Assembly (NCBI GenBank): GCA_028707125.1
Contig: JAQTUX010000001.1
Location: 394,375 to 458,374 of the forward strand
DNA length: 64,000 nt
From: Candidatus Omnitrophota bacterium
GTDB taxonomy: Bacteria; Omnitrophota; Gorgyraeia; Gygaellales; JAQTUX01
Direction of reading: 5' to 3'
The notes under the pieces are model-generated. The model searched no databases and was not told where the DNA came from. It saw only the letters and a program-made list of their open reading frames with translations. The first letter of the stretch is position 1. Every line of letters begins with the position of its first letter. Made by a program: the position numbers and the translations under genes. Below are positions 1-27,195 of the stretch, in pieces.

Positions 1-826
1 CGATTCGATCGTTTTCGGCACGGGGTTGGAGTTTAAGGATACTATAACGCAGCAGCTTGAGGGCTTATTGAACAGAGGCCGGACTTCTCCTTACTGCGAA
101 GTGATAAACGGAGGCGTGGGGGACAGCAATCTGGAAGCCGAGTCGCTTCTGATCCAGGAGAAGATGGATATTCTGAAGCCGGATATTATTTTGCTGGGGG
201 TTTATTTAAACGATCTTTCTCCTCCCGCCGGTTATCTGAAGGGCATGGATATATACCGCAATCATCTGTTGTATAAGTGCCATCAGGTAAAATGGATCAG
301 AGAGAGCAATATCTGGAATTACGCGCTGAAGGGATTGGAGCGCAGGATAAACAGCGCCATGCTTTTTGCTTATATCTCCGGTAATATACGGCACCTTTGG
401 GTGATAGATTACAACGGGCGCGAATGGTTAGAAGACCCCGCGGAATTTAAGAATTTGGTATATAAGGCGCGCTATGATTGGGGCATGGCCTGGGACGAAG
501 GCCTGTGGGGCAGAGGGTTCGGCCTCATTAAGCAAATACAGGGCATCTGCAGCTCCAGGAACATCAAATTCGCGGTGGTCATACTGCCTGTTGAACCCCA
601 GGTATTATTTAAAGGCGATCTTCCCGTAATAAGGAAACCGCAGGATATGCTCGCTGCTTTTCTGGGGGATATGCGCATACCTTGTCTGGATATGTTGAGC
701 GTACTGCGCGTTCATAAAGACGAGCGTATCTTTTATGACCATTGCCATTTTACTCCGTTTGGCGCATCGTTGGTCGCCGGGGAGATCAGCGCTTTTCTTG
801 AAGGGATAGACGGATATGCCGGCTGA
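1..826 (+). CDS. SGNH/GDSL-family hydrolase (5' partial; reading frame continues upstream of window, block I 'DSIVFGTG' is encoded at nt 2-25)
   Basis: ORF track 26..826 uses TTG, but the same frame is open to nt 2 and encodes D-S-I-V-F-G (GDS block I); block III 'GVYLNDL'; block V 'YDHCHFTPFG' (DxxH). Stop overlaps next start (ATGCCGGCTGA). Confidence 0.55.
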   Translation, partial: DSIVFGTGLEFKDTITQQLEGLLNRGRTSPYCEVINGGVGDSNLEAESLLIQEKMDILKPDIILLGVYLNDLSPPAGYLKGMDIYRNHLLYKCHQVKWIRESNIWNYALKGLERRINSAMLFAYISGNIRHLWVIDYNGREWLEDPAEFKNLVYKARYDWGMAWDEGLWGRGFGLIKQIQGICSSRNIKFAVVILPVEPQVLFKGDLPVIRKPQDMLAAFLGDMRIPCLDMLSVLRVHKDERIFYDHCHFTPFGASLVAGEISAFLEGIDGYAG

Positions 827-1850
827 ATTAAGGAAAGGTATCCATAATTCCGTGCTCGCGGTATTTGTTTTATTGATTTCCGCGCTGATACTATACCTTG
901 GCCTGGAGGTATTCTTTACCCTGAAGGGTGAATACGGCCTCGAGCAATTTATTGTCGGCGACTCTCGCTGGAATGCCGATGTAAAGAACGGCGTGCATAT
1001 GGCCTTTTCGCTTTCCTCAAATCCCGGCCTGGGCTGGGAATTAAAGCCGGCGGAACTGATAAATAAATATGACAGGTTTGAGGAGAAGGCGAGGGAGAAG
1101 GCTCCGGGCGTGTTCAGGATAATCGCCATCGGAGATTCTATCGCGCAACAGGGGTATTTTGAGAGGTTCCTGGAGGACAGGTTAAATGAGGACGCGCTGG
1201 GCATGCGTTTTGAGGTCTGGAACTGCGGGGTATCCGGATACAATATAACCAATTATTATTACTATTTCAGGGACATAATACCTAGATTCAAACCGGATTT
1301 CATCATACTGGCTTTATGTCTGAATGATTTTAGCGGGATCAATTTAACCATCCATGATGGGAAGCGGTTCGTGGAGTTCTTCAACCCTTTTATTGCCCTA
1401 GATTTTCCTTTCAGCAGCCGTCTTTTCCTGCATTCCAGGGTCTACCGGTTTATCGTATTCGGCCTGGAGCGCTATATACTTGAAAGGGCGAGTATGGAAG
1501 AGATCCTTGTCGGGAAATTCGACAAGATGCTTCAACTGGCCAATGAGAGGAACCTGAAGATCGTGGCCCTGATCTGGCCGCATATGAAGAATCAATATGA
1601 CAGCGCACAGCAGGATGAACACATCCGGATCAGGCATATTCTGGAAAGCGGGGGCGTTCCCTACGCTGACATGCACAAAAGCTTTACAGACAGGGACGCC
1701 CCCGGCTTGAAAGAATACCCCGGGGATTATGTCCACCCTTCAGAAAAGGCATTTATGATGATGTCTGAAGATATATACGATTTCGTATCCGGCTATTTGG
1801 AAGATAATTTTAATTTTTCATTCCACCAGAAAGGAAGGCGTGCGTCATGA
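816..1850 (+). CDS. Membrane-anchored SGNH/GDSL hydrolase or acyltransferase
   Basis: N-terminal TM helix; block I 'FRIIAIGDSIAQQGY', block II 'WNCGVSGYN', block III 'LALCLNDFSG', block V 'GDYVHPSEKA'. Confidence 0.65.
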   Translation: MPAELRKGIHNSVLAVFVLLISALILYLGLEVFFTLKGEYGLEQFIVGDSRWNADVKNGVHMAFSLSSNPGLGWELKPAELINKYDRFEEKAREKAPGVFRIIAIGDSIAQQGYFERFLEDRLNEDALGMRFEVWNCGVSGYNITNYYYYFRDIIPRFKPDFIILALCLNDFSGINLTIHDGKRFVEFFNPFIALDFPFSSRLFLHSRVYRFIVFGLERYILERASMEEILVGKFDKMLQLANERNLKIVALIWPHMKNQYDSAQQDEHIRIRHILESGGVPYADMHKSFTDRDAPGLKEYPGDYVHPSEKAFMMMSEDIYDFVSGYLEDNFNFSFHQKGRRAS

Positions 1851-2437
1851 GCATACAGGAAAGGGTCAAGAAGATCGGCAGGAACCTTGTGAAATTAAAT
1901 CAGACGGGGCAGCCGCAGGTGCCCGCCGGCAGGGTATTGATCGTTGATAACGGCTATGCCTCATACAGGCATCTTGAGCTGGCGATAGAGCGCACATTGC
2001 AATACGCGGACAGAGGCAGCGTATCCATAATAACGTTTGAACACAGGAAGGGTTTTATATCCGGCAGGTTCGGCCAGATAGATATCATTACCCCTGCTGT
2101 GCCCAGTGCAGGGCGTTACGAGATAGCGTCTCTTATGCTGCGGTACAGGCGTATGGGTTTCAGGCAGATAATCATACTTTCGCTGGACGTAACGCCCATA
2201 CTCGCGTCTTTGCTGTTTACAAAAAGCAGCCTGTTCCTTTATAACCGCTGGGAGCAATGGTGGGAACTGAAGCGGCTGGGCGTAAATGACGGTATCGCGT
2301 TTATGGCGAGGTCGGTTATCAACCTGTTTATATTCGCGTATCTTATTCTAGTGTTCTTGCTCATCCGCGCGAAGATGGCATTTAATATAATACGTTTCAA
2401 AGGCAAGGGCGGGATAGATGACGGCGTATTCGCGTAA
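1847..2437 (+). CDS. Hypothetical protein, soluble N-terminal half plus C-terminal hydrophobic segments
   Basis: ATGA overlap with upstream stop; no recognisable motif; C-terminal 'INLFIFAYLILVFLLI' TM-like. Confidence 0.35.
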   Translation: MSIQERVKKIGRNLVKLNQTGQPQVPAGRVLIVDNGYASYRHLELAIERTLQYADRGSVSIITFEHRKGFISGRFGQIDIITPAVPSAGRYEIASLMLRYRRMGFRQIIILSLDVTPILASLLFTKSSLFLYNRWEQWWELKRLGVNDGIAFMARSVINLFIFAYLILVFLLIRAKMAFNIIRFKGKGGIDDGVFA

Positions 2438-3479
2438 TAACGAGATCAACCTGAAAGAAGAATTAAGGAAGGATATAGTCCTTGAGTCAATGCCGCGCAG
2501 GGTCCAGGTCATTCTGACGACAAAATGCAATTTAAGATGCATTATGTGCGGCAGGTTCAGCTGCGACCCTTCTTTGACCATGCCGCTTGATCGGGTTAAA
2601 AAGATCTACAGCTTGTTCCCTTATTTGCAGATAGTGGACTGGCAGGGCGGAGAGGTGTTTATCCTGGATTATTTCAAGGGGCTTTTTCTTGACGTGTCGG
2701 GGAATTTCCCGCATATTATGCATAATATAACCACCAACGCCCTGCTGATAGACAATGAGTGGGCGGATGTGCTGGCGGGGTCAAACGTGTGCCTGCAGTG
2801 TTCCATAGACTCCGTGACCGAGCCCGTTTATGAGTCTATAAGGGTGGGCGGAAGCTTCAAGGCGTTATCGCGCAATCTTGACCTTATAAATGAAGCGAAG
2901 GCGGCGCGTGCCGGCAACGTAAATCTTGACCTGGTGGCGATAGTAATGAAGCGCAACCTCAAGGAGATGGTGCTGTTCCCTGATTTTTGCAGAAAATATA
3001 ATTTCAGGAGTTTGAGGTTTAGCGCCCTGTGGCCGGATAAGGCGCCCGAAGAGGATATCTTAAGCAGGCCAGAAAGAGACACCTTTCAGTATTTAAACGA
3101 CGCGCTTGTTCAGATCAAGGATAAATGCCGGCAGTATAACATTAATTTTCACTGCACATTTGATTCATTGGTGAGGGCGCATCTGGAGGGCGGTGATAAG
3201 GGCGGCGGTCAGTGCGGCGTTCCTGCGGAAGAAGGCGCGAAGGTGAGGGTCATAGAGTGCCGTATGCCCTGGACCAATCTGTTTATAAACGCCAATGGCG
3301 ATGTCTATCCGGAGTGCAAGTGCCAGCGCCCCGCGGGGAACATAGAGAGGGATTCTCTGGAGGAGATATGGAACAACAGCACTATGCAGATCTACCGCAG
3401 TTTAATAAGATGGGGCGGTGCGGACAAGATCTGCTCTGAGCAATGTAAATTCCGCGGTTCTTTATATGAAAAGTTGTAA
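2418..3479 (+). CDS. Radical SAM enzyme with C-terminal SPASM/twitch auxiliary-cluster domain
   Basis: 'TTKCNLRCIMCGRF' (CX3CX2C), 'WQGGEVF' (GGE SAM motif), C-terminal Cys-rich 'QCG...ECRMPW...ANGDVYPECKC...CSEQCK'. Confidence 0.75.
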   Translation: MTAYSRNNEINLKEELRKDIVLESMPRRVQVILTTKCNLRCIMCGRFSCDPSLTMPLDRVKKIYSLFPYLQIVDWQGGEVFILDYFKGLFLDVSGNFPHIMHNITTNALLIDNEWADVLAGSNVCLQCSIDSVTEPVYESIRVGGSFKALSRNLDLINEAKAARAGNVNLDLVAIVMKRNLKEMVLFPDFCRKYNFRSLRFSALWPDKAPEEDILSRPERDTFQYLNDALVQIKDKCRQYNINFHCTFDSLVRAHLEGGDKGGGQCGVPAEEGAKVRVIECRMPWTNLFINANGDVYPECKCQRPAGNIERDSLEEIWNNSTMQIYRSLIRWGGADKICSEQCKFRGSLYEKL

Positions 3480-3502
3480 TAACGAGATATAATGATTTTG
3501 TT

Positions 3503-4891
3503 ATGAAAATATTGCAGATAGTACACAGCTTGCCTCCTTATAATTCCGGCGGTACGGAGGTCTACACTTCAGGCCTCTCGCGGGAGCTGTCCAGGCGCCA
3601 CGACGTCTTTATCGTCCATCGCGTAAACGATCCTTCCAGAGAGGAATATGACGTAAGGTTCCGGCGGCAGGGGAGGGTCAATATATTTGAGATTAACAAC
3701 ACGTTCAGGGAATGCGGTTCTTTCCGGATGCTGTATCAAAACTCTCATATACTGGAAAGGTTTTCCGGAATACTTAAAGATATAAGGCCGGATATCGCCC
3801 ACATTCAGCATCTTTTATTCCTTTCCACGGATATTATAAAGCACCTTAAGTCCGAAGGGGTGCCGGTTGTCTTCACCCTGCACGATTACTGGATGTTCTG
3901 CCAGCAGGGGCAGTTGTTTAACAGGCGTAACGAGGTGTGCCCCGGGCCGTCCGCTGAGCGCTGCTATGAGTGCCTGAAGTACCTGCTTGGCATAAGGGGA
4001 AATGTTATGAGATCATACATTTTCCTCAAGAAATACCTATCCGCTCATTTGCTGGGGTTATCAAAAGAACTGTATTTCGCCTTTGCCCGGGCCGGCTTCT
4101 TGAAAAAAGCAACCGCCATGGATTACATAGAGCGGCGCGCCGGACACATAAGAGAGATGCTGGATATGGCCGATGCCCTTATTTCGCCCTCGCATTTTTT
4201 AAGACAAAGATTTACGGAGTTTGGGGCCAGGCCGGAGAAGATACGGGTTTTGCCCTACGGTTTAGATTACAGCCGTTTTAATAATATAAGTAAAGAGCGG
4301 GGTGGCAGGACAACGAGCGTCGCTTTCATAGGCACATTGCTGCCTGCTAAAGGCGCGGATGTGCTGATCAAGGCCTTCAACAGGCTGGGGGAGGCTGATG
4401 TTGAGCTCAATATTTACGGCCGGCTTTATCCCTATAAGGGATACGAATATTATACCGGTCTGCTCCGGGGCCTGGCGAGGAATAAGAGAGTGAGATTTAT
4501 GGGCGAATTTCATAATGATGACATAGGAAGCATACTCGGCAGGGCGGATGTCCTGGTCGTTCCTTCGGTCTGGCCGGAGAATTCCCCGCTTGTTATACAA
4601 GAAGCGCAGCTGGCAGGGGTACCTGTAATAGCGTCCAGGACAGGAGGCATCCCGGAACTGATAACTCATGGAGAGAACGGGCTGTTGTTTGAGCCGGCAT
4701 GCGACCAGGATTTATACAGGCAGCTGAATTTGTTTATTCATGACCGGCCGCTGGCAAGGCGCCTTAGGGCTGGCGCGGTAATGCCTATGTCTATCGAAGA
4801 GAATGCCTGCAGGGTCTCTGATGTTTATTATGAAGCAGGGGCGGCATGCCAGCCGGCTCTATCGTTGGGGGCTTCGTACAGTGGAATATAA
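3503..4891 (+). CDS. GT4 (GT-B fold) glycosyltransferase
   Basis: 'VVPSVWPENSPLVIQEAQLAGVPVIASRTGGIPELI...GENGLLFEP' typical group-1 glycosyltransferase C-terminal motif. Confidence 0.75.
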   Translation: MKILQIVHSLPPYNSGGTEVYTSGLSRELSRRHDVFIVHRVNDPSREEYDVRFRRQGRVNIFEINNTFRECGSFRMLYQNSHILERFSGILKDIRPDIAHIQHLLFLSTDIIKHLKSEGVPVVFTLHDYWMFCQQGQLFNRRNEVCPGPSAERCYECLKYLLGIRGNVMRSYIFLKKYLSAHLLGLSKELYFAFARAGFLKKATAMDYIERRAGHIREMLDMADALISPSHFLRQRFTEFGARPEKIRVLPYGLDYSRFNNISKERGGRTTSVAFIGTLLPAKGADVLIKAFNRLGEADVELNIYGRLYPYKGYEYYTGLLRGLARNKRVRFMGEFHNDDIGSILGRADVLVVPSVWPENSPLVIQEAQLAGVPVIASRTGGIPELITHGENGLLFEPACDQDLYRQLNLFIHDRPLARRLRAGAVMPMSIEENACRVSDVYYEAGAACQPALSLGASYSGI

Positions 4892-5990
4892 GAGGGATTG
4901 CCGTTATTTCAGGGGCAGTGTCCCCTGCCTGTTCAAAAGATTGTGCAGGGGATGCAGGAAATATCAGAAAATAACCAAGAAGATACTCGTTATAAAGTTG
5001 GCTTCGGCAGGCGATGTATTAAGGACTACGCCGTTGTTACGTGCCTTAAAAAAGATACACCCCGGCGCCTACATGGTCTGGCTTACATCAAAAGAGGCCG
5101 CAGCCGTCCTTGAAGGCAATCCCTTCATTGATGAGGTGCTTTCTTCAGGTTTCGCTTCTTCAGCGAGGCTGATCATGGAGCGTTATGATTGGGTGATATC
5201 GCTGGATAAGGCGGCGGAGGCGGCGGCAATAGCGTCTATGGTCAAGGCGCAGAGGAGGTCGGGATATGGCTTGGGTCCTGACGGGAGGATTTTTCCTTTT
5301 GACAAGGATGCCGAATACGGGTTTATCCTCGGGCTTTCCGATGACCTTAAATTCAGGCGAAATAAGAAGTCATATCAGGAAATAGTATTTGAGACCTGCG
5401 GCCTGCATTTTAGAGGGGAAAAATATGTCCTGCCTTTCAGCGAGAAACAACGCGAGTTTAAACATAGGTTTATGAAGGCAAAGAGGCTGCATAATGATCG
5501 GTTAAAGATAGGGCTTAACACAGGATGCGGTCCGGTTTTTCCCTATAAAAGATGGACGGAGGATGGCTTTGCGGGGCTGGCAGAGCGGTTGATCAGGGCG
5601 GGGGACGCGAAAGTCCTGCTTCTGGGCGGAGCGGAAGAAGAAGAACGCAATAGCAGGATATCGCGAAGATTGGGCCGCGCCGTAATTGACTCCGGGTGCG
5701 GGAATTCGTTAGCGGAATTCGCGGCAATTATTGACTGTTGCGATGTGGTAGTTTCTTCAGATACCCTGGCTATGCATATCGCCATTGGCCTGGGGAAAAA
5801 GACCGTCTGCTTGTTCGGCCCTACCTGTCCCCAGGAAGTAGAATTGTATTCAAACGGTTTAAAGATATCATCATCTTTGGGCTGCGCTCCATGCTATAAG
5901 GATCATTGCGCTCAAGACGGCAAATGTATGAAGGGGATATCCGTGAGCCAGGTGTATTCGGCGGTAAGAAAAATGATGGCTGAAAAATAA
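4803..5990 (+). CDS. GT9 heptosyltransferase-family glycosyltransferase (RfaF/WaaC-like); true start uncertain (possibly TTG near 4938)
   Basis: 'KKILVIKLASAGDVLRTTPLLRAL', 'VVSSDTLAMHIAIGLGKKTVCLFGPT'; 89-nt overlap with upstream gene if ATG 4803 is used; Cys-rich N-terminal extension. Confidence 0.65.
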   Translation: MPAGSLMFIMKQGRHASRLYRWGLRTVEYKRDCRYFRGSVPCLFKRLCRGCRKYQKITKKILVIKLASAGDVLRTTPLLRALKKIHPGAYMVWLTSKEAAAVLEGNPFIDEVLSSGFASSARLIMERYDWVISLDKAAEAAAIASMVKAQRRSGYGLGPDGRIFPFDKDAEYGFILGLSDDLKFRRNKKSYQEIVFETCGLHFRGEKYVLPFSEKQREFKHRFMKAKRLHNDRLKIGLNTGCGPVFPYKRWTEDGFAGLAERLIRAGDAKVLLLGGAEEEERNSRISRRLGRAVIDSGCGNSLAEFAAIIDCCDVVVSSDTLAMHIAIGLGKKTVCLFGPTCPQEVELYSNGLKISSSLGCAPCYKDHCAQDGKCMKGISVSQVYSAVRKMMAEK

Positions 5991-6061
5991 TCCCCGATAT
6001 TTGTCAGCGGGGAAGAAATATAGACGTTAAAATGGGGGTTGATTTCCAAAGGAGGTGCGCA

Positions 6062-6670
6062 ATGAAGAGATTGTTGGCGGCTGTGTTGTTTCTTACCTTA
6101 TTCGTAATAGCGGCCGTATTTTTTAAGCCGGCGATGCTGGTGGACATGTTCAAGGGCGGTAAGCAAAAGCAGGCGCCGCAGCAGGCCAAGATGGTAGTTG
6201 CTGATGCGCCAAAACTGCCGGAGCAGATCAGCGCCTATTACCGTAAGGCAAACTGGGATGAAGCGATCAGGCTGGCAAAGATGCATCTGCAAGTCAGCCC
6301 CAACGACAGTACCATCCGCATTATCATGGCCGAGAGCTATATCAATAAACGCGATTATTCTTCGGCCGAGCGCGAGATCAAGGAAGTATTAGAGCGTGAG
6401 CCGAGCAATGTATGGGCATTGAGGGTGCTTGCCTGGGCCTATCTATCAGAAAAAAAGAACTCAGAGGCGCAAGACGTTATTGATAAGGCGCTGCTGGTCA
6501 ATCCCAAAGACGACGGGGTTAATTTTACCGCCGCGCAAGTTTATTCGGCATTAGGCAGGCTTCGCGAAGCATTGAAATACATAGAGAGCGCCCTGGTATC
6601 GCAGCCCGATAATAATCAGTTTGTTGCGGTAAAGAAAAGAATAGAAAAGAAGATCAGCCAGGCAAAATAG
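6062..6670 (+). CDS. TPR-repeat protein with N-terminal signal/anchor
   Basis: ATG 6062 preceded by 'aaaggagg'; 'MKRLLAAVLFLTLFVIAAVFF' then TPR-like repeats (ORF track start 6032 is inside the RBS). Confidence 0.6.
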   Translation: MKRLLAAVLFLTLFVIAAVFFKPAMLVDMFKGGKQKQAPQQAKMVVADAPKLPEQISAYYRKANWDEAIRLAKMHLQVSPNDSTIRIIMAESYINKRDYSSAEREIKEVLEREPSNVWALRVLAWAYLSEKKNSEAQDVIDKALLVNPKDDGVNFTAAQVYSALGRLREALKYIESALVSQPDNNQFVAVKKRIEKKISQAK

Positions 6671-6677
6671 ATACCCG

Positions 6678-7601: not shown

Positions 7602-7622
7602 TTTTCGCTGGATTACGGAGAC

Positions 7623-12839: not shown

Positions 12840-12868
12840 GTTGGCCTGCGCGGCCCATAATAGCTGTT

Positions 12869-15491: not shown

Positions 15492-15498
15492 CCGTCTT

Positions 15499-16719: not shown

Positions 16720-16736
16720 TAACTAAGAGGTATATT

Positions 16737-18461: not shown

Positions 18462-19420
18462 AAGAGACGGTATCCATAATTATAGTTAACCATAATAGAA
18501 AGGAGTATTTAAAAAGGTGCCTGGACTCCGCGCTCTGCCAGAGCTATCCGGATATTGAAGTGATAGCCGTGGATAACGCGTCCACAGATGGTTCGGTGGA
18601 ACTGTTAAAAAATATGTTCTCCTCCGTCACATTGATCCTCAATAAGGATAATGAGATGTACGCGCGGGCTCAGAACTCCGGCATATCTCAATCCAGAGGG
18701 CAATATGTATTATGTTTGAATAACGATGCCGTGCTGGATAATAATTATGTTGCCGAATGCGTAAAGATAATGTCGGAGAAGAAGGATGTCGGCATGGTTA
18801 CGGGCAAGGTCCTGCTTATGGACGGCAAGACCATAGATTCTACCGGGCAGTTCCTGTCAAGGTCAAGGAGGCCGTACGACAGAGGTTATCGCAAAAAAGA
18901 TAAGGGGCAGTATGCGACAGGGGGTTATGTTTTCGGCCCAGGCGGCGCGGCGCCTCTGTTCCGGCGGTCCATGTTGGAAGAATTAAGTCTACCCGCTGTT
19001 AACGGCGGCTATGCCTATTTTGATGAGGATTACGGGATGTTTTACGAGGATCTGGACCTGGCCTGGAGGGCGAACAGGCGCGGCTGGAGGGCTTATTATA
19101 ACCCAAAGGCAGCCGCTTATCATGTAAGGGGGGGCAGCTGTCAGGAGAAAAAAACCTTATTTTTGTTCAGACGCGATTTCGTTTGCCTACCGAGGCATCT
19201 TCAGTCGCGCCTTATAAAGAACAGGTACGCGACCATAATAAAAAACGAGTCCATAGCAGGGTTTCTTTCTAACGGTTTATTTATTCTGGGATATGATCTG
19301 AAATTATTTTTGTATATGTTCCTGCTGCGGCCGGCGTTGTTTATAGACCTGTTCAGGGATCCGGGATTCTTAAAATATGCCTGTCACAAAAGGAAGTATC
19401 TGGCGGACACGGCTGCATAG
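18458..19420 (+). CDS. GT2 glycosyltransferase
   Basis: 'VSIIIVNHNRKEYLKRCLDSALCQSYPDIEVIAVDNASTDGS', 'YVLCLNNDAVL'; ATGA overlap with upstream stop. Confidence 0.7.
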   Translation: MKETVSIIIVNHNRKEYLKRCLDSALCQSYPDIEVIAVDNASTDGSVELLKNMFSSVTLILNKDNEMYARAQNSGISQSRGQYVLCLNNDAVLDNNYVAECVKIMSEKKDVGMVTGKVLLMDGKTIDSTGQFLSRSRRPYDRGYRKKDKGQYATGGYVFGPGGAAPLFRRSMLEELSLPAVNGGYAYFDEDYGMFYEDLDLAWRANRRGWRAYYNPKAAAYHVRGGSCQEKKTLFLFRRDFVCLPRHLQSRLIKNRYATIIKNESIAGFLSNGLFILGYDLKLFLYMFLLRPALFIDLFRDPGFLKYACHKRKYLADTAA

Positions 19421-19423
19421 CTC

Positions 19424-20470
19424 ATGATTATAAGGATTAAAGAACTGCTTAAGAATATATCGCTGGCTGCCGCATCTTCTTTTATTGTTTTGTTTATAAT
19501 TAATTATTTTGTGGGTATATTCTTTGATAAAGAGATCTCCAGGGTGCAATGGGCGCAGGACCATACGGTAAGATTAAGGATGTCGGATAACCCCGAGATA
19601 ATGTTTGAGGCCACCCCTAATATAGGGGAGGCAAACAGCCAGGGGCTGAGGGATTTTGAGTATAGTTTTAAGAAGCCCAATGGCACACGCAGGATCGCGG
19701 TAATCGGTGATTCCATATCCTATGGTATAGGAGTTGAAGTAGAGGAGTCATGGCCTAAGCAGCTGGAAAAGAAATTGAATGAAGATAACGCCGGCGCCAG
19801 ATTTGAGGTCATAAATTTTTCCGTTCCCGCTTATTCAACCGTGCAGGAAGCGGAGGTCCTGAGGACCAAGGCGGTAAAATATGACCCGGACCTTGTCATC
19901 ATAGCGGCCTTTGAGAATGATAACGCCATTTACAGTTCGGAGATGAATAAAATATTTTCCAGTGAAGCGTCTCCGGATTATTTTGACAGCGTGCATGTTT
20001 TGTTCGACCCCGGGCTATCCGGCTTTCAAAGGTCTATCTACAGCAGCAGCCTCGGAAAGTTTATCAGGTACAGGCTTGCCCTGCTGAAGGATTCTGGTTT
20101 AAATAGATCAGGTATCCTGAGATATCCCAGCCCCGGCAGACATATAAGATATATCAGCGAATATTACAACGACGTTGATGTTATCGGTTCGGGCTTTAAG
20201 AAGATAAGTTCAGTACTCAGAAAGCACAGGCTGCCTTGCCTGGTAGTATTTTTCAGTCATACGGAAAACACGGTTGTCCGCGATAAGATCAGCGGGATAT
20301 GCCGGGAAAACAGCATCGCCTTTATGGATACAATGCACCTTTTTCCATACAAAGAAGAGGACATCAAGGGAAGTTATTATATAGATAACTGCCATCTGAC
20401 GCCGTATGCCCATGCGCTTTATGCCGATGAGGTTTATCTGAGATTGAGATCAATGGGGGTCGCGGGATAG
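19424..20470 (+). CDS. Membrane-anchored SGNH/GDSL hydrolase or acyltransferase
   Basis: 'RRIAVIGDSISYGIG', 'INFSVPAYST', 'IDNCHLTPYAHA'. Confidence 0.6.
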   Translation: MIIRIKELLKNISLAAASSFIVLFIINYFVGIFFDKEISRVQWAQDHTVRLRMSDNPEIMFEATPNIGEANSQGLRDFEYSFKKPNGTRRIAVIGDSISYGIGVEVEESWPKQLEKKLNEDNAGARFEVINFSVPAYSTVQEAEVLRTKAVKYDPDLVIIAAFENDNAIYSSEMNKIFSSEASPDYFDSVHVLFDPGLSGFQRSIYSSSLGKFIRYRLALLKDSGLNRSGILRYPSPGRHIRYISEYYNDVDVIGSGFKKISSVLRKHRLPCLVVFFSHTENTVVRDKISGICRENSIAFMDTMHLFPYKEEDIKGSYYIDNCHLTPYAHALYADEVYLRLRSMGVAG

Positions 20471-20485
20471 GGACTGACCGCTATT

Positions 20486-22048
20486 ATGGACCGGTTTGTA
20501 TTCAGACAGAAGATAGTGTATGTTTTAGCCGGCATAATGCTGGCCTTAGCCGCCCTTGAGCTGGGTATGCGCATAACAGGCAAGGTCCTAAGTTATAGAC
20601 AAAACAGGCGCAACACAATGGCATTACAGCGCAGTGGCGCATACCGCATTTTATGCCTGGGCGAGTCCACCACCGCGGGGCAGTGGCCGCTTTTCCTGGA
20701 AGAGATGCTTAATGAGAAGAAAACAGGGCTGAAATTTACGGTGATAGATAAGGGCGTCCCGGGGACCAACACCGGTTTCATAGTATCTATGCTGGAAGAG
20801 AATATTGACCGGTATAAACCCGATATGGTGATCACCATGATGGGGGCTAATGACGTTTGGACCAATATAGTATACAGGGGCACCCTGGCTGTGAGGACGG
20901 AGATATTTCTTAAAAATTTCAGGATATATAAGCTATTCAGAATATTAGCGGTGAATATTGCCGGGAAGATCCAGATAAGGCATGACGTAAAAGAGGCGGC
21001 CACTGCCCCGGTCCCCGAACATGATTACCTGAAATTGGCCGGTTCCTATGAGGCGCAAGGGCAATATGGCGAAGCGATCGCCATGTACCGCAAGGCCATC
21101 GAGGCCGATCCGGATAATAGCCGCATATATCAGACGTTAGGCATGCATTATCGTGAACAGGAAAAATACGAAGAGGCCGAACGCGTCCTGCAACGAGCCA
21201 TTGAAATCGACCCGCGTAATGATTATGCGTATGTAGAGCTGGGGCGTTGTTATCTGGAGAGAAAGATGTGGGATAAGGGGATACCGGTATTGGAAAAGGC
21301 CATAGATATTAATCCTCGTGAAACATACGCTTATTTATTCCTGGGCATGGCCCTTAATGAGCTGCAGCAATGCGATAAGGCGATAGGGATATTAAAAGGC
21401 GCGCTGAACAGCGATCCGGATAATGTGTTTGCGCTGGAGGCGCTTGCGATATGCTCTGAGGGCCCGGGGTTATTCAAGGAACGGGAATACGCGTTTAAGA
21501 GATTGATAGCCCGTAATCACAGGGCCGCCTGGGCTTATGTTGAGCTGGGGCGCAGTTATGGCAAGCAGGGCAGGTTTGCCGAAGAGAGGGCTTTATATGA
21601 GAGTGGTATCGAGTCGTATCAGCGAAAAGACTTCCTCTACCGCCTGATCGCGTTATCTTTTGAGAAGGAAGGAAGACATAATATGGCAAGAAGGTATTTT
21701 AATATGGCCGCGGAGATGTCGATGAAACAGTATGATCATATAATGGCGCAGAATTATCGGCTCCTGAAAGATATCGTTAAAAGCAGGGGATTGCAGCTGG
21801 TATGCGTGCAATATCCAATGCGCAGCGCAGAGCCGTTAAAGGCGATGTTTGAGGTTACCGAGGGGGTTATTTTCGCAGATAATGAGAAAATATTTAAAGA
21901 CGCTGTAGCGGCAGGCGGATATGGGGAATATTTTGTAGATAATTTCGGCGGCGACTTCGGCCATTGCACCGATAAAGGCAACCGCCTGTTAGCCGGGAAT
22001 ATAGCCGATACCATAGAAAGGGAATATTTCAGTGGAATGCCGCGATAG
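20486..22048 (+). CDS. SGNH-family enzyme with ~6 TPR repeats inserted between block III and block V
   Basis: TM helix; 'YRILCLGESTTAGQWP' (block I, GES), 'KGVPGTNTG' (II), 'MMGANDVW' (III), TPR-like repeats 'AIAMYRKAIEADPDN...', then 'GGDFGHCTDKGNRLLAGNIA' (block V DxxH). Confidence 0.6.
   Translation: MDRFVFRQKIVYVLAGIMLALAALELGMRITGKVLSYRQNRRNTMALQRSGAYRILCLGESTTAGQWPLFLEEMLNEKKTGLKFTVIDKGVPGTNTGFIVSMLEENIDRYKPDMVITMMGANDVWTNIVYRGTLAVRTEIFLKNFRIYKLFRILAVNIAGKIQIRHDVKEAATAPVPEHDYLKLAGSYEAQGQYGEAIAMYRKAIEADPDNSRIYQTLGMHYREQEKYEEAERVLQRAIEIDPRNDYAYVELGRCYLERKMWDKGIPVLEKAIDINPRETYAYLFLGMALNELQQCDKAIGILKGALNSDPDNVFALEALAICSEGPGLFKEREYAFKRLIARNHRAAWAYVELGRSYGKQGRFAEERALYESGIESYQRKDFLYRLIALSFEKEGRHNMARRYFNMAAEMSMKQYDHIMAQNYRLLKDIVKSRGLQLVCVQYPMRSAEPLKAMFEVTEGVIFADNEKIFKDAVAAGGYGEYFVDNFGGDFGHCTDKGNRLLAGNIADTIEREYFSGMPR
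21791..22020 (+). repeat. ~230-nt segment with high nucleotide identity to 30774..31003 (3' ends of the two SGNH-TPR paralogs)
   Basis: e.g. 'aagctggtatgcgtgcaatatccaatgcgcagc' vs 'aagctggtatgcgtgcagtatcctatgcgcagc'; '...ggcgacttcggccattgcacc...' vs '...ggtgacttcggccactgcacg...'. Confidence 0.6.
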
Positions 22049-23444
22049 GGCTGTTTATTTACCAGGGTTTTTTCATAAGCCGGAGAACATATTTGCTATT
22101 ATAGGGTTAATGTGGGGAATCCTGTTTGTATTTATAACCCCTCCTTTTCAGGCCCCTGATGAGGACCTTCATTTTTACCGCGCCTTTCATGTTTCCGAAG
22201 GCAATATAAAAGCTTCATTGCGCTCGGGCACGGCCGGGGGCCATCTGCCGCGCAGCCTCGAAGACACGGTCAAGGTCTTTTCCGGCGTGTCTTTTTTCCA
22301 TAAGCATAAACAGAAAATAGGGGATATTATTTCTGCTGCCGGCCGTCCGCTTGACAGTGAAGACAGGGTATTTATTAATTTAAGGGCTATGGCGCGGCTC
22401 TCCCCGGTTGCCTATATCCCGCAGGCCCTGGGCATTATGCTGGGCAGGCTATTCGATCTCCCCGTGTTAATACTGATGTATCTGGGCCGTATATTTAACC
22501 TGTTATTCTGGATATTGGTCATGCGCCGCGCCATCAAAAACATCCCGTTACTTAAATGGGGCGTTTTGCTGTTAGCCCTTATGCCCATGTCGTTGTTTCT
22601 GGCCTCTTCCCTGAGCGCTGACGCGATGACAAACGCCCTGTCATTTCTTTTGATCGCGGTATTCCTGCGATGCGCGTTTGATAAGGGCGTATCCGTTATA
22701 AGCAGGAGAGAATTGGCCGTATTATTTTTATACTCTGGCCTGGCCGCCCTAAGCAAGCCGTACCTGTTTCTTGCATTATTGTTTCTTTTGATCCCGCGGG
22801 AGAAGTTTTGTTGCCTGAGAAGTTACCTTAAGGTATTTTTCTCATTGTTGTTTACCGGCATAGTTGTTCAGGGCATATGGTGCTTTACGATCAGGGAGCT
22901 GTTTGTGAGTATCAGGGCGGGAGTGGAAGCGTTGCCGCACATTTCTCTCGTTGTATTCGACCCCCTTAAGTACCTCGCGGTTTTGATCGGGACGCTGTAT
23001 GCGAACGGGTTTTTTTACGCCGATTCGTTCATAGGCAGGCTTGGCTGGCTGGATACTCCCTTGCCGTTATTTCTGGTTATCTCGTATTACGCTGTCTTGA
23101 TCCTCGTCCCTGTTCTTGAGCGCCCCTCCGGGATAACGATCCATTACAGGCAGAGAGTTGTGGCGCTTATAACAGCATTGGCGGGGTTTATTTTCGTGTT
23201 TACATCTCAGTATCTGTCTTATACGCCTTTATGGGGCGATATTATTGAAGGGGTGCAGGGCAGGTATTTCATTCCTTTCGCGCCGGTGTTATTCTTGATC
23301 CTCTATAACGGTAATATGCCGTTTAATATCAGGCGCTACGCTGCCATAGTAACAGGTTATGCCGTATTCGCGTTAAGTTACACATTGGTAGTTCTGGCGT
23401 GCCGGTATTATCTCCCGGTTGAATTTTATAACGCCCTCAGGTAA
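22032..23444 (+). CDS. DUF2142-like GT-C membrane protein (putative polyprenyl-P-sugar-dependent transferase)
   Basis: 'FITPPFQAPDEDLHFYRAFHV' PDE motif typical of DUF2142; ~10 TM. Confidence 0.55.
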   Translation: MECRDRAVYLPGFFHKPENIFAIIGLMWGILFVFITPPFQAPDEDLHFYRAFHVSEGNIKASLRSGTAGGHLPRSLEDTVKVFSGVSFFHKHKQKIGDIISAAGRPLDSEDRVFINLRAMARLSPVAYIPQALGIMLGRLFDLPVLILMYLGRIFNLLFWILVMRRAIKNIPLLKWGVLLLALMPMSLFLASSLSADAMTNALSFLLIAVFLRCAFDKGVSVISRRELAVLFLYSGLAALSKPYLFLALLFLLIPREKFCCLRSYLKVFFSLLFTGIVVQGIWCFTIRELFVSIRAGVEALPHISLVVFDPLKYLAVLIGTLYANGFFYADSFIGRLGWLDTPLPLFLVISYYAVLILVPVLERPSGITIHYRQRVVALITALAGFIFVFTSQYLSYTPLWGDIIEGVQGRYFIPFAPVLFLILYNGNMPFNIRRYAAIVTGYAVFALSYTLVVLACRYYLPVEFYNALR

Positions 23445-23477
23445 ATGACGGCGTTTTAAAATGACGGCTAATATACC

Positions 23478-25541
23478 ATGATCGTCATGAAACCGATATT
23501 GTATTATATCGACCCGGGTTCGGGGCTGCCTTTCTCGGGCTCGGGCCCGTTAATATCGGGCTTGCTGGCCGGGGTCATCGGATTTCTTTTGTTCGGCCTT
23601 AAGTGTCTTTTCAGGTTATTCAGAAGGCGCATTCCGCAGTTAATCTTAGTTGTTATCATAGCATTGATCATAATGATTGTGAGGTCAGATATGTTTAAAG
23701 GGCTATTTATGCAGGATTCAAAGAAAGTAATCATTTTAGGAATGGATGGTCTGGAGCCGGGTATCGTAGAGAAATTGATGAGGGAGGGGAGATTGCCGAA
23801 TTTTTCCCGCCTGAAAGATATAGGCGCTTATAGCAAGCTGCATACATCTATTCCCTCTGAATCAGCGGTCGCCTGGACCAGCTTTTATACGGGGACAAAT
23901 CCCGGCAAACACGGAATATACGATTTTATCATGCCGCGGTTTGAGAATTATCTGCCATATTTGAGCCTGACCAATACGCGCGCGGGAAGAGGCATCGCCA
24001 GGTACCAGCAGGGCGATGCGTTCTGGGATATTGCCTCAAGACATAGAATACCCAGCACTATATTATTCTGCCCTAATACCTTTCCGCCGGATAAGATCTA
24101 CGGAAAGATGCTTTCCGGAATGGGGGTTACGGATTTGCGGGGGACGATGGGCACCTTTTCCTTTTATACAACCGCGCAGCCCTCCGGTAAAAAGGATACC
24201 GGCGGCCAGGTTTATTATGTAAAGGCCGAAGGCAACAGGATAAATACTTCTTTATTGGGGCCCAGGGATTCCTCGGGAAGCAAAAAGAAGGATTTCGCTA
24301 TTCCTATGAAGATCGTTTTGCATCCCGAAAAGGGGATGGCCTCTATTGAGTTGGATAATAAGAGATTTGAATTGCGTGAATCCGAATGGTCCGCGTGGAC
24401 AAGGATCAGGTTTAAGATCGGCGCGATAAAAAAAGTAAGCGGTACATGCAAATTTTACCTGAAGCGGATAGGCCCTGTTTTTGAACTTTATGTAAGCGCG
24501 ATAAATATCGACCCCAGGCATCCGGCTTTTGCCGTCTCCTATCCTGAGGATTACGCGGCCAAGATCGCCGAAGAGACAGGGATGTATTCTACCTTAGGCA
24601 TGCCTCATGATACCTGGGCGTTGAATGAAAACAGGATCGCCTACGGGACATATCTTCAGCAGTCAGACAGTATCTTTTCTGAAAGAGAGGCGATATTTAG
24701 AAATGAGTTGAAGAAATTCAGCAGGGGCATATTTTTCTTTTATTTCGGCACGTCCGATTCCCTTCAGCATATGTTCTGGCGTTTCAGCGGCCCCGGACAC
24801 CCTGATTCCGGCAGAGGCCTGCCCGGACCTTACGGCGATGTGATCGAGACGCATTACCAGCGCCTGGACGGGATCCTGGGAGAGGTGTTGGATGGCTGCG
24901 TGGATAACAATACGTTGGTGATTGTGCTTTCTGACCATGGGTTCACGGCTTTCCGCAGGGCAGTGCATATAAACAGGTGGTTGATAGAAAATGGCTTTAT
25001 GCGTCTTAAAGGCGGCGAAAAGGCAGGCGAGGAGTTTTTTGCTAATGTGGACTGGGCAAGGACCCGGGCCTATAGCCTGGGATTTGGCGGCATTTACATA
25101 AACCGGATCAATCGCGAGAGGGAGGGCATTGTATATCCGGGTAATGATAGCGAGGATGTAAAAGGCGCCATAAAGAAGAAACTGCTTGGTTTAAAAGACC
25201 CCAGGACGGGCCAGAAGGTGGTTAATAATGTCTATATCGGGAAAGAAATATTCCAGGGTCCCAATACAGATAAGGCGCCGGACCTATTTATAGGATTTGA
25301 TCACGGATTCAGGGCGTCATGGCAGACAGCCCTGGGCGCCGCGCCCGAGGCGCTTATTGAAGACAATATGAAAAACTGGGGAGGAGACCACCTGGTTGAT
25401 CCCGCTCTGGTGCCGGGCATATTATTGGTCAACAGGAAAATAGAGCGTAATGATCCCAACATAGTTGATATAGTCCCTACGATTCTAAGATTTTATGGCA
25501 TTGAACCCCCGGATGATCTTGACGGCCGGCCCTTATTTTAG
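23478..25541 (+). CDS. Membrane-anchored alkaline-phosphatase-superfamily enzyme of the NPP/type I phosphodiesterase family
   Basis: Two N-terminal TM; 'VIILGMDGLEPG', 'SIPSESAVAWTSFYTGTNPGKHGIYDF' (NPP-like nucleophile region), C-terminal 'NWGGDHLVDPA'. Confidence 0.6.
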   Translation: MIVMKPILYYIDPGSGLPFSGSGPLISGLLAGVIGFLLFGLKCLFRLFRRRIPQLILVVIIALIIMIVRSDMFKGLFMQDSKKVIILGMDGLEPGIVEKLMREGRLPNFSRLKDIGAYSKLHTSIPSESAVAWTSFYTGTNPGKHGIYDFIMPRFENYLPYLSLTNTRAGRGIARYQQGDAFWDIASRHRIPSTILFCPNTFPPDKIYGKMLSGMGVTDLRGTMGTFSFYTTAQPSGKKDTGGQVYYVKAEGNRINTSLLGPRDSSGSKKKDFAIPMKIVLHPEKGMASIELDNKRFELRESEWSAWTRIRFKIGAIKKVSGTCKFYLKRIGPVFELYVSAINIDPRHPAFAVSYPEDYAAKIAEETGMYSTLGMPHDTWALNENRIAYGTYLQQSDSIFSEREAIFRNELKKFSRGIFFFYFGTSDSLQHMFWRFSGPGHPDSGRGLPGPYGDVIETHYQRLDGILGEVLDGCVDNNTLVIVLSDHGFTAFRRAVHINRWLIENGFMRLKGGEKAGEEFFANVDWARTRAYSLGFGGIYINRINREREGIVYPGNDSEDVKGAIKKKLLGLKDPRTGQKVVNNVYIGKEIFQGPNTDKAPDLFIGFDHGFRASWQTALGAAPEALIEDNMKNWGGDHLVDPALVPGILLVNRKIERNDPNIVDIVPTILRFYGIEPPDDLDGRPLF

Positions 25542-26347: not shown

Positions 26348-26354
26348 AAAGCCG

Positions 26355-27194: not shown

Positions 27195-27195
27195 G

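Follow-up and report, generated by a model that had tools for sequence, protein, structure and literature searches.

A candidate envelope-glycan island of an Omnitrophota bacterium with a predicted module for tailoring lipid-linked sugar donors

A single-strand gene island of at least 40 kb in an uncultured, anaerobic Omnitrophota bacterium probably serves the assembly and decoration, outside the cytoplasm, of an envelope glycan, as an expanded form of the "three-component" periplasmic glycosylation systems. Its core module encodes, in order, a GT2-methyltransferase fusion (g09), a B12 radical SAM-YdjC fusion (g10) and a PMT_2 GT-C transferase (g11). The component enzyme families are known and their density is unusual; radical-SAM tailoring of a lipid-linked sugar donor, as proposed here, is without earlier description.

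The genes listed below lie in the window, that is, the whole stretch of 64,000 nucleotides that was analyzed, with families assigned from Pfam and NCBIfam HMMs, motifs and two structure models.

g01, 1..826, +: membrane-anchored SGNH-like protein, truncated where the window begins; Pfam match below threshold, window SGNH HMM 222 bits
g02, 816..1850, +: membrane-anchored SGNH hydrolase-fold protein
g03, 1847..2437, +: 196 aa, two C-terminal TM helices
g04, 2418..3479, +: radical SAM enzyme with SPASM/twitch domain (Radical_SAM and SPASM); best NCBIfam match a twitch-domain radical SAM family, 74 bits
g05, 3503..4891, +: cytoplasmic GT4 (GT-B fold); Glycos_transf_1 103 bits, Glyco_transf_4 74 bits
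g06, 4881..5990, +: GT9, heptosyltransferase family; Glyco_transf_9 91 bits; LPS heptosyltransferase II 91 bits and I 88 bits in NCBIfam, both below cut-off
g07, 6062..6670, +: small TPR protein with N-terminal anchor; TPR_19 and related TPR families
g08, 6678..7601, +: GT2; Glycos_transf_2 73.6 bits
g09, 7623..8993, +: fusion of polyprenyl-phosphate-type GT2 (1-~245) and class I SAM methyltransferase (~270-456); Glycos_transf_2 99 bits, Methyltransf_25/11 51/49 bits
g10, 8990..11212, +: fusion of B12-binding radical SAM (1-~455) and YdjC-family deacetylase (~460-740); B12-binding 85.6, Radical_SAM 75.8, YdjC 199 bits
g11, 11202..12839, +: GT-C; PMT_2 35.0 bits against a cut-off of 26.1; 9 predicted TM helices
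g12, 12869..13882, +: membrane-anchored SGNH-like protein; Pfam match below threshold
g13, 13851..15491, +: GT-C; PMT_2 46.8 bits, PMT 34.8 bits; start ambiguous (13797 or 13851)
g14, 15499..16719, +: short GT-C-fold transferase without a large soluble domain
g15, 16737..18461, +: GT-C; PMT_2 40.1 bits; start ambiguous (16617 or 16737)
g16, 18458..19420, +: GT2 with C-terminal TM helix; Glycos_transf_2 97 bits
g17, 19424..20470, +: membrane-anchored SGNH protein; Lipase_GDSL_2 39.8 bits
g18, 20486..22048, +: anchored SGNH protein; Lipase_GDSL_2 34.4 bits, strong TPR matches
g19, 22032..23444, +: DUF2142 polytopic protein (WpsI/WpsJ-type family); 250 bits, full profile; 10 TM helices
g20, 23478..25541, +: alkaline-phosphatase-superfamily enzyme, two N-terminal TM helices; Phosphodiest 118.5 bits; weak PDB matches to ENPP1 and PhnA
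g21, 25547..26347, +: sulfate adenylyltransferase subunit CysD; PRK05253 348 bits against a cut-off of 195
g22, 26355..27194, +: TauE/SafE-family anion permease; TauE 101.9 bits; 7 TM helices
g23, 27196..28425, +: CysN-like GTPase subunit without APS kinase domain; NCBIfam CysN 322 bits against a cut-off of 336, GTP_EFTU 165 bits
g24, 28459..29487, +: GspF/PilC-type platform protein within the train; T2SSF 205 bits; GspF 324 bits, profile positions 66-401 of 401
g25, 29528..31021, +: second anchored SGNH protein with TPR insertion; Lipase_GDSL_2 38.1 bits and TPR; window SGNH HMM 240 bits
g26, 31447..34491, +: 1014 aa, pseudopilin-like N-terminus and lamin-tail domain; LTD 34.2 bits; weak GspK N-terminal match, 40 bits

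From the ORF listing and an analysis of the junctions, g01-g25 form an unbroken + strand train over window bases 1-31021, in which 8-11 junctions overlap and all gaps are 71 nt or less. Neighbors overlap by 4 nt at 1847 (ATGA), 8990 (GTGA, the g09/g10 junction) and 18458 (ATGA), by 11 nt at 816 and at 11202 (TTG start, the g10/g11 junction), by 20 nt at 2418 and by 17 nt at 22032 (GTG start). The GTG start of g06 at 4881 agrees with the gene call on L001, and the ATG of g07 at 6062 is preceded by the Shine-Dalgarno-like AAAGGAGG. The earlier note had described about 22 coupled plus-strand genes between 1 and 25541; the feature is real, as are its single strand and its overlapping or near-abutting genes, but that range holds 20 genes, and both of its ends are artificial. 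Locus L001, identical to the window across 11850 nt, carries the train 9.2 kb further upstream, where this part (at least 9.2 kb) adds two PMT_2 genes, three or four radical SAM genes and one degenerate SGNH-like gene. Downstream, the island runs on to 31-34.5 kb; the strongest terminator-like hairpins in 20-38 kb (34566-34595 and 34609-34652) lie directly 3' of g26, with which the transcription unit may close.

In NCBIfam, the GT2 domain of g09 comes closest to ArnC, Dol-P-hexose transferase, PgfS, AglJ and PpgS, with ArnC at 89 bits against an equivalog cut-off of 529, and g10 to HpnK (180 bits, cut-off 233) and HpnJ (168 bits, cut-off 578). Because these scores fall far below the ArnC, HpnJ and HpnK cut-offs, the substrates named here for g09 and g10 are tentative. 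HpnJ leads BchE (160 bits) by very little as a match to the radical SAM domain, and the type of reaction assigned to that domain is therefore a guess. Its CxxxCxxC motif is invariant, the Asp/His/His positions of the YdjC domain align with those of ChbG, and the nearest solved structures of g10 are AprD4 (6fd2, E 1e-21) and YdjC proteins. The nearest characterized relatives of the radical SAM domain, the AprD4 family diol-dehydratase and HpnJ, have as substrates glucosamine rings bearing a free amine, HpnJ coming after the deacetylase HpnK (PMC13459092); NaxD is a YdjC enzyme whose substrate is undecaprenyl-phosphate-GalNAc (PMC11279074), and in pentofuranose systems lipid-linked donors are tailored prior to GT-C transfer (PMC11127046). 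Both this donor-tailoring module and the alkaline-phosphatase-superfamily identity of g20 are absent from the earlier note.

Drawing on family membership and gene order for every step, we propose that at the cytoplasmic face the GT2 domain of g09 would place N-acetylhexosamine on polyprenyl phosphate and the YdjC domain of g10 would remove the N-acetyl group in the manner of NaxD, while C-methylation, deoxygenation or ring contraction of the lipid-linked amino sugar may fall to the B12-type radical SAM domain, and its N- or O-methylation to the methyltransferase domain of g09. The enzyme g04, the three or four upstream radical SAM proteins and the soluble GT4, GT9 and GT2 enzymes would serve the synthesis or tailoring of other donors or of the acceptor core. 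After flipping to the periplasmic face, g11, g13, g14, g15, g19 and the two upstream PMT_2 proteins would decorate different sites of an envelope acceptor with these sugars, the anchored SGNH enzymes would remove or transfer ester-linked groups of the glycan, and g20 would add or remove a phospho-substituent. The GT9 and GT4 genes lie side by side, which favors LPS core-lipid A as the putative acceptor; its pathway is invisible here because the 43 kb seen holds no initiating phosphoglycosyltransferase, Wzx, Wzy, WaaL or ABC exporter.

The five polytopic proteins g11, g13, g14, g15 and g19, previously read as GT-C enzymes, are indeed GT-C at the family level and not transporters, as judged from HMMs, motifs and two structure models, and g19 is the DUF2142-like member that had been singled out. 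For g11, g13 and g15, the PMT_2 match exceeds the Pfam gathering score. All five have an acidic first-loop residue, with the DE motif that had been claimed for them in g11, g13, g15 and g19 and DS in g14; the Asp is invariant in g11, and in g19 a PDED motif follows TM1. The paralogues, numbering 7-9 with the upstream part, are 23-35% identical among themselves (g13 and g11 34%, g15 25-27% to both), and a paralogue profile (g11) matches AglB (3waj, E 2e-6). In Lactococcus, the DUF2142 family has been assigned an extracytoplasmic polymerase or transferase role (PMC12599335). The suggested use of polyprenyl-phosphate sugars is supported at the family level, and the GT2 domain of g09 could make the lipid-linked donor. 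Pfam likewise bears out three GT2 (g08, g09, g16), one GT4 (g05) and one GT9 (g06) enzyme, as well as two radical SAM enzymes (g04, g10) and a TPR protein (g07), with the amendment that g09 and g10 are two-domain fusions.

Six SGNH proteins occur in the window, as had been counted, five of them inside 1-25541 and the sixth, g25, beyond it; the whole locus has 7-8 paralogues. Their catalytic residues are retained, save that the block III Asn of g12 is Gly: g01 (375 aa at full length, L001 8884-10011) keeps GDSIVFG, NGGVG, LND and DHCH, g12 keeps GDS, NTG and DVFH, and g17 has GDSISYG, END and DNCH. Paralogy links g01 to g17 (E 9e-17) and g12 to g02 (E 2e-24), and in g18, which is 36% identical to g25, alignment places the TPR array between block III and block V. 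Each window SGNH protein has one N-terminal anchor with a positive-inside bias, and a natural fusion of a radical SAM domain, one TM helix and an SGNH/TPR domain (P0051) argues that the SGNH domain lies outside the cytoplasm; a periplasmic orientation is thus supported. The O-acyl tailoring proposed for these proteins, on the fold alone, is unproven, because no MBOAT or AT3 acyl-translocase partner was found in the ~43 kb examined for partner and acceptor genes.

Our survey covered 80 genome loci that encode a relative of the g10 radical SAM; they come from many phyla of bacteria, from CPR and from archaea. Of these loci, 38 carry a g09-like GT2 (31 of them within 3 kb), 24 carry g16-like GT2 genes and 23 a GT-C-like ORF. 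The module order is seen again in other organisms, including other phyla: L088 has [GT2-MTase][B12 rSAM][YdjC][PMT_2], the first of these being a fusion of the g09 type, L002-L004 show GT2, rSAM-YdjC, MTase and a pair of PMT_2 genes, and in L008 (Desulfobacteria) and L010 (Omnitrophota) the set is MTase, GT2, rSAM and YdjC, preceded immediately upstream in both loci by a polytopic gene of the YfhO or GT87 family; in P0005, MTase, rSAM and YdjC form a single protein. Just 1 of the 80 loci has SGNH, which accompanies the other genes only in close relatives of this island; the GT-C/SGNH pairing stressed earlier is not general.

Several known systems share parts of this arrangement. In ArnC/ArnD/ArnT (L-Ara4N) and Francisella FlmF2/NaxD/FlmK (GalN), as proposed for the three adjacent island genes, an ArnC-like GT2 charges polyprenyl phosphate with a sugar, an N-deacylase processes that sugar on its lipid carrier (NaxD is of the YdjC family, like the C-terminal domain of g10) and a PMT_2/ArnT-type GT-C hands on the amino sugar in the periplasm. 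The island differs in two fusions, of its deacetylase with a B12-type radical SAM domain and of its GT2 with a methyltransferase, in having 7-9 GT-C paralogues rather than one, and in that lipid A is only a putative acceptor. Three-component systems (GtrA/GtrB/GtrC; pentofuranose systems with GT136) likewise pair a polyprenyl-phosphate sugar synthase with a GT-C acting after export, but the island has no recognizable GtrA, SMR or MATE flippase, carries radical SAM, YdjC and methyltransferase tailoring enzymes where the pentofuranose systems have epimerases, and has a multiplied GT-C set with SGNH proteins alongside. In the hopanoid pathway, HpnI (GT2), HpnK (YdjC deacetylase) and HpnJ (B12-type radical SAM) act sequentially on lipid-linked N-acetylglucosamine, the radical SAM step following deacetylation, on free glucosamine (PMC13459092). 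The island module has these enzyme types, with both g10 domains scoring below cut-offs, but is coupled to GT-C, of which that pathway has none (PMC13459092). Neither a squalene-hopene cyclase nor any other hpn gene lies nearby in the island.

Rhizobium RgtA-D with RgtE and the mycobacterial Emb/Aft enzymes are sets of multiple GT-C paralogues that use one or a few polyprenyl-phosphate donors at different positions of one glycoconjugate. To our knowledge, they are without radical SAM tailoring and SGNH partners, and the island GT-C proteins have negligible sequence identity to them, the relation being at the level of the fold only. PatB, the OatA C-domain, Ape1 and the OafB SGNH domain are extracytoplasmic SGNH O-acetyl transferases or esterases, of which the transferases depend on a membrane partner of the MBOAT or AT3 type; unlike these, two of the six window SGNH proteins carry a TPR array inside the SGNH fold, and 7-8 paralogues share this one locus.

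The GT-C set might instead polymerize a separate polysaccharide or lipoglycan in the periplasm, adding one sugar at a time from polyprenyl-phosphate donors in the way that mycobacterial arabinan is made by Emb/Aft enzymes, with the DUF2142 protein as polymerase or attachment enzyme. We consider this rather unlikely, as genes for primer synthesis and export are absent from the part seen and the 23-35% identity among the paralogues suits different acceptor positions equally; this reading overlaps with the decoration of an envelope glycan, the acceptor being the sole difference. Modeled on PMT, which O-mannosylates proteins, the PMT_2/PMT-like GT-C enzymes could also glycosylate proteins that are secreted or lie on the surface, type IV filament subunits for example, a reading that we regard as decidedly unlikely: neither a pilin gene nor another Ser/Thr-rich acceptor was identified, g26 (S 8.1%, T 3.3%) is not Ser/Thr-rich, ArnT, AglB and Alg enzymes match g14 as well as PMTs do, and the GT9 and GT4 pair together with the alkaline-phosphatase-family enzyme suits lipid-glycan decoration better.

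A biosynthetic cluster for a soluble, glycosylated natural product, whether a RiPP or an aminoglycoside-like compound, would account for the aminoglycoside-like cytoplasmic toolkit (AprD4-like and twitch/SPASM radical SAM enzymes, sugar N-deacetylase, GT4, methyltransferases) and for the upstream gene u3, whose best match is a RiPP C-methyltransferase family (146 bits, below cut-off). It would give no role to 7-9 polytopic GT-C or 7-8 anchored SGNH proteins, the cluster is without cyclitol synthase, aminotransferase, precursor peptide, exporter or resistance gene, and across phyla the module accompanies polyprenyl-phosphate GT2 and GT-C genes, making such a product very improbable.

These anaerobes are rich in B12 radical SAM paralogues, and some of the co-location of such genes with glycan genes could be incidental. 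Syntenic relatives of the island occur in L092, L090/L094, L099 and L123/L151. The protein g03, which has no match in Pfam or NCBIfam, has a counterpart of its size at the equivalent position in L092 and a homologue in L099, and orthologues of g04 adjoin g02-type SGNH genes in L090 and L091.

The genes from the window start to position 31021 (g01–g25, numbered in order among the plus-strand genes of the window) form a single packed train, with all 25 on the plus strand in the ORF listing and every junction being either an overlap of 4, 11, 17, or 20 nt or a gap of no more than 71 nt, just as the tightly coupled arrangement described in the earlier note would have it. That note had, however, limited the island to 1–25541, and both of these ends are artificial. 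A Logan contig (L001), which shows identity to the window across 11850 nt, adds 9185 nt upstream and contains the missing 5′ part of g01 as well as seven further plus-strand genes, one of which is cut by the end of the contig:

Upstream of the window on L001, plus strand: partial B12 radical SAM
Upstream of the window on L001, plus strand: 199-aa SPASM-like protein
Upstream of the window on L001, plus strand: degenerate 571-aa SGNH-like protein (u2)
Upstream of the window on L001, plus strand: B12 radical SAM
Upstream of the window on L001, plus strand: 290-aa radical SAM
Upstream of the window on L001, plus strand: two PMT_2 proteins

At the other end, the strongest terminator-like hairpins within 20–38 kb lie at 34566–34652, directly 3′ of g26. 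Given these upstream genes and hairpins, the island spans at least 40 kb, with nine GT-C, seven or eight SGNH, and five or six radical SAM proteins in one train. Its G+C content (0.43–0.50 over 1–32000) is lower than that at 32–64 kb (0.49–0.57, mostly >0.50), where the genes are those of nitrogen metabolism and housekeeping. Lower G+C is common in surface-glycan loci, and the value found here would fit horizontal acquisition. Scanning the window for Rfam families and tRNAs gave no matches.

The GT4 (g05), GT9 (g06), TPR (g07), and GT2 (g08, g09, and g16) proteins first read from the sequence are borne out by Pfam and NCBIfam, as are the two radical SAM enzymes, of which g04 is of the SPASM/twitch type and g10 of the B12-binding type. 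The five proposed GT-C proteins (g11, g13, g14, g15, and g19) hold up equally well: each has 8–10 transmembrane (TM) helices in a hydropathy scan (about 8–13 being expected for GT-C), an acidic residue in the first loop, and a sequence or fold match to an established GT-C family, and none is transporter-like. PMT_2 exceeds its Pfam gathering score in g11, g13, and g15, DUF2142 is found in g19 at 250 bits, and g14 is placed as a GT-C by homologue search and structure. The first-loop acidic residue corresponds to D34, invariant across the PMT_2 paralogue alignment, to D40, invariant in the g14 family, and in g19 to a PDED motif after TM1. The PMT_2 paralogue profile also matches the archaeal oligosaccharyltransferase AglB (E 2e-6), while neither g14 nor g19 gave anything significant in profile–profile comparison with that alignment (probability <1%), and PDB sequence searches with g13, g19, and the g14 family profile returned nothing useful. 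Pairwise identities of 23–35% among the PMT_2 paralogues and 25–36% among the SGNH proteins indicate that both sets of paralogues are old. The donor for the GT-C proteins is predicted to be lipid-linked (polyprenyl phosphate or diphosphate). We note that the lactococcal DUF2142 proteins WpsI and WpsJ have been assigned to extracytoplasmic polymerization or transfer of cell-wall polysaccharide (PMC12599335).

What had been missed is that three consecutive genes form a putative donor-tailoring module:

7623–8993, plus strand: g09, GT2–methyltransferase
8990–11212, plus strand: g10, B12 radical SAM–YdjC
11202–12839, plus strand: g11, PMT_2 GT-C

The three overlap by 4 nt (g09/g10) and 11 nt (g10/g11), and g11 directly follows g09–g10. 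The best NCBIfam matches of the N-terminal GT2 domain of g09 are ArnC (89 bits), Dol-P-hexose transferase (61.5 bits), PgfS, AglJ, and the polyprenyl-P-GalNAc synthase PpgS (41.8 bits), with the scores falling below the equivalog cut-offs; a class I SAM methyltransferase makes up the C-terminal domain. In g10, a B12-binding radical SAM domain with its CxxxCxxC motif is fused to a YdjC deacetylase (Pfam, 199 bits), and the top NCBIfam matches, HpnK (180.3 bits; cut-off 232.6) and HpnJ (167.9 bits; cut-off 577.6), both fall short. With these scores below cut-off and no hpn context (neither squalene–hopene cyclase nor hpn genes were found in the 64-kb window and 9.2 kb upstream), the hopanoid HpnI/HpnJ/HpnK pathway is rejected. 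The same set of domains recurs elsewhere in matching order, in one case within a single protein:

L088: GT2–methyltransferase, radical SAM, YdjC, and PMT_2, in the domain order of g09–g11
L002–L004: GT2, radical SAM–YdjC, methyltransferase, and two PMT_2 genes
L008 (Desulfobacteria) and L010 (another Omnitrophota): methyltransferase, GT2, radical SAM, and YdjC
P0005 (a related protein): methyltransferase–radical SAM–YdjC

In both L008 and L010, a polytopic YfhO- or GT87-family gene lies just upstream of the module. Beside the conserved module of L088, very large proteins (660–980 aa) are encoded at 3953–6886 and 13938–20639, three of them with radical SAM/SPASM domains and one with Methyltransf_24 and weak radical SAM/SPASM matches; these may perform further radical tailoring steps in relatives.

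The best-supported reading of the island, judged from sequence, is that it would encode an expanded three-component, ArnT/NaxD-type system. On family membership and gene order, which underlie every step, the GT2 domain of g09 would load a HexNAc onto polyprenyl phosphate, the YdjC domain of g10 would free the amine, the fused radical SAM domain and the methyltransferase would tailor the resulting amino sugar, a flippase would export the donor, and g11 and the other GT-C paralogues would transfer it to different acceptor positions. There is precedent for enzymatic remodelling of lipid-linked donors ahead of GT-C transfer (PMC11127046), and the YdjC enzyme NaxD deacetylates undecaprenyl-phosphate-GalNAc, allowing the addition of galactosamine to lipid A (PMC11279074). 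As in NaxD/ArnT-type modification, where the YdjC deacetylase carries metal-binding and catalytic residues, g10 keeps the Asp/His/His set, its (H)DFG Asp and two His lining up with their counterparts in ChbG and further YdjC structures. Also as in three-component systems, where the GT-C is encoded with the synthase, g11 follows g09–g10, and the same holds in L088 and L002. Three-component systems have a dedicated flippase, however, and none was recognized here, with no GtrA, SMR, or MATE family matched by Pfam in the island within the window and 9.2 kb upstream. The nearest solved structure to the radical SAM domain of g10 is that of the AprD4 family diol-dehydratase (E 1e-21), and the characterized relatives of this domain, AprD4 and HpnJ, work on glucosamine rings whose amine is free. 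HpnJ acts after the deacetylase HpnK, and the step proposed for it is a ring contraction that gives a cyclitol (PMC13459092); by analogy, the fusion of YdjC to the radical SAM domain would fit such a deacetylate-then-radical order. Because BchE scores nearly as high as HpnJ against this domain (NCBIfam), more than one reaction type is plausible for g10.

A g10-family profile scan with one genome per species gave at least 490 confirmed loci, in Desulfobacterota, Nitrospirota, Omnitrophota, Elusimicrobiota, Planctomycetota, Verrucomicrobiota, CPR groups, and several archaea. Among the best 80 of these, a g09-like GT2 flanks 38 (within 3 kb in 31), compared with only 9 of 80 loci picked for an SGNH relative, and a GT-C-like ORF is present in at least 23, a lower bound set by a narrow HMM. 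Methyltransferase, YdjC, and SGNH genes are far rarer in the same best 80 (5, 3, and 1 loci, respectively). These co-occurrence counts point to a polyprenyl-phosphate GT2, a B12 radical SAM enzyme, and a GT-C as the stable core, with YdjC and methyltransferase forming a sub-variant and SGNH a lineage-restricted addition. SGNH as a general partner of the module was rejected, as the apparent "SGNH/TPR" neighbors in Geobacter, Pelobacteraceae, and Planctomycetota are TPR-only or Wzy_C plus TPR proteins by Pfam. It is conceivable, if rather doubtful, that this core, here with YdjC and methyltransferase added, defines a class of periplasmic glycosylation that has yet to be described, one with a wide spread among anaerobic bacteria, CPR, and archaea, in which radical SAM chemistry rebuilds the lipid-linked sugar donor before a GT-C transfers it. 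The sugar might be C-methylated or deoxygenated, or its ring contracted to a carbocyclic cyclitol of the kind proposed for HpnJ; the Omnitrophota island, with its nine GT-C and five or six radical SAM proteins, would be a scaled-up form, in which periplasmic SGNH partners would be coupled physically to the radical SAM step, the arrangement of a radical SAM–TM–SGNH/TPR fusion.

With an HMM built from the SGNH paralogues, the window yields six SGNH ORFs and no more, the number originally given, but only g01, g02, g12, g17, and g18 fall within 1–25541, the sixth being g25 (29528–31021, plus strand). The family blocks I (GDS), II (G), III (GxND), and V (DxxH), with a Ser–Asp–His triad, are in place overall: none of the six has lost the Ser of block I or the DxxH of block V. 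Block I reads GES rather than GDS in g18 and g25, g17 has Ser for the block II Gly, and g12 is missing the Asn of block III (upstream, the degenerate u2 lacks the block V Asp). The SGNH/GDSL family test recovers the α/β/α fold, and each of the six has one N-terminal hydrophobic segment, whose N-terminal flank is more positive than the C-terminal one in five and equally so in g18. In g18 (20486–22048, plus strand) and g25, a TPR array of ~250–300 residues is set inside the SGNH fold, between blocks III and V, rather than appended to it. An Elusimicrobia protein (P0051; L006, 10001–13099) joins a B12 radical SAM domain, through a single TM segment (~483–506), to an SGNH/TPR unit of the g18/g25 type. 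Since its radical SAM domain must be cytoplasmic, the SGNH domain must lie outside the membrane, and the fusion implies that the two activities are functionally linked. We note that the iterated SGNH HMM was filtered against radical SAM proteins, which this fusion otherwise pulls in.

Fold, residues, and topology support the SGNH proteins as periplasmic esterases or acyltransferases acting on the glycan. O-Acetyltransferase systems resembling them require an MBOAT or AT3 partner, as in PatA/PatB and OafB, whereas the island has no Pfam match to MBOAT or Acyl_transf_3; g14, the only candidate by size and TM count, was considered as an AT3-type translocase for the SGNH proteins and rejected, its fold being that of a GT-C. 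For these reasons O-acylation is no more likely than hydrolysis (de-O-acylation, for example), and the "O-acyl tailoring" suggested at first is plausible but unproven. Close relatives of g02 are rare (11 matches in a 5.8-billion-protein index), and they sit in the following contexts:

L090/L094: Wzy_C, GT2, three PMT_2, GT2, carbamoyltransferase, radical SAM–SPASM, SGNH, methyltransferase, GT2, and B12 radical SAM
L091: GT4, WecA-like, two SGNH, radical SAM–SPASM, and B12 radical SAM
L092: SGNH, SGNH, GT2, g03-like, GT4, GT9, and radical SAM–YdjC

Island-like contexts of g02 relatives are found in L099 and L123/L151 as well.

As acceptor, we favor a putative LPS core–lipid A, because of the adjacent GT9 and GT4 genes, the anchored alkaline-phosphatase-superfamily protein g20, and the Wzy_C/O-antigen-ligase-family genes in related loci; the GT9 and GT4 pair is the only, and an indirect, pointer to a lipid A phosphate. 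Protein glycosylation and the synthesis of a periplasmic polymer are both live alternatives to this reading, since the train includes a GspF/PilC gene and is followed by a gene for a giant GspK-like protein, and the structural neighbors of g14 include PMTs, all of which bring other acceptors into play. The ~43 kb examined show no initiating transferase, exporter, ligase, flippase, or acyl-translocase. A natural-product gene cluster is rejected on the dominance of membrane enzymes in the locus.

All the island proteins fall into known superfamilies, and the logic of a lipid-linked donor and periplasmic GT-C is established. What appears undescribed in the literature searched is the conserved coupling of a B12 radical SAM enzyme (here YdjC-fused) and a methyltransferase to a donor synthase and GT-C, the gathering of so many GT-C, SGNH, and radical SAM proteins (nine, seven or eight, and five or six) in one transcription-coupled train, and SGNH proteins with an internal TPR array; the search found no paper joining radical SAM enzymes to GT-C or polyprenyl-phosphate systems. 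If the reading is correct, anaerobes diversify the lipid-linked sugars of their envelope by oxygen-independent radical chemistry, an extra enzymatic layer on the three-component and ArnT-type paradigm. Given its presence in Omnitrophota, Elusimicrobiota, Desulfobacterota, Nitrospirota, Planctomycetota, CPR, and DPANN or other archaea, the module could explain unusual surface-glycan sugars, accounting for methylated, deoxy, or carbocyclic ones in uncultured lineages. Members of Omnitrophota are believed to rely on touching other cells, and recognition of a host or partner could plausibly be governed by their surface-glycan island, at least 40 kb in length. The finding, inferred for an uncultured organism, would be of interest to bacterial glycobiologists, and g09–g11 offers a compact three-gene unit that is directly testable.

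Several other features of the window deserve mention. Directly after g20, the packed train carries g21–g23 (25547–28425, plus strand), encoding CysD, a TauE/SafE-family permease, and CysN, and in a Geobacteraceae locus (L028) CysD and CysN adjoin radical SAM and GT2 genes; no APS kinase domain, sulfotransferase, or APS/PAPS reductase was seen in the window. The CysD/CysN genes may serve glycan sulfation. Between cysN and the SGNH–TPR gene lies g24 (28459–29487, plus strand), a lone GspF/PilC-type platform protein that aligns to positions 66–401 of the 401-position GspF profile, the first ~65 residues being absent. The last gene before the two strong terminator-like hairpins, g26 (31447–34491, plus strand), encodes 1014 aa whose hydrophobic N-terminus resembles that of a pseudopilin (weak GspK, 40 bits); the protein also has a lamin-tail domain and the C-terminal motif RININTAPVEVLGAL. 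The 196-aa product of g03 (1847–2437, plus strand) has no family match, with a soluble N-terminal half and two C-terminal TM segments; a protein of equal size occupies the equal position in L092 (5353–5940), and a homologue is present in L099. Finally, there are two glutamine synthetase genes, at 37901–39412 (plus strand) and 47353–48885 (minus strand), the GlnA domains of the latter being preceded by a fused HTH_17 DNA-binding domain at the N-terminus, and a 932-aa protein at 49549–52347 combines a weak Pfam CAST/RIM-binding match (residues 108–546) with a C-terminal OmpA peptidoglycan-binding domain.
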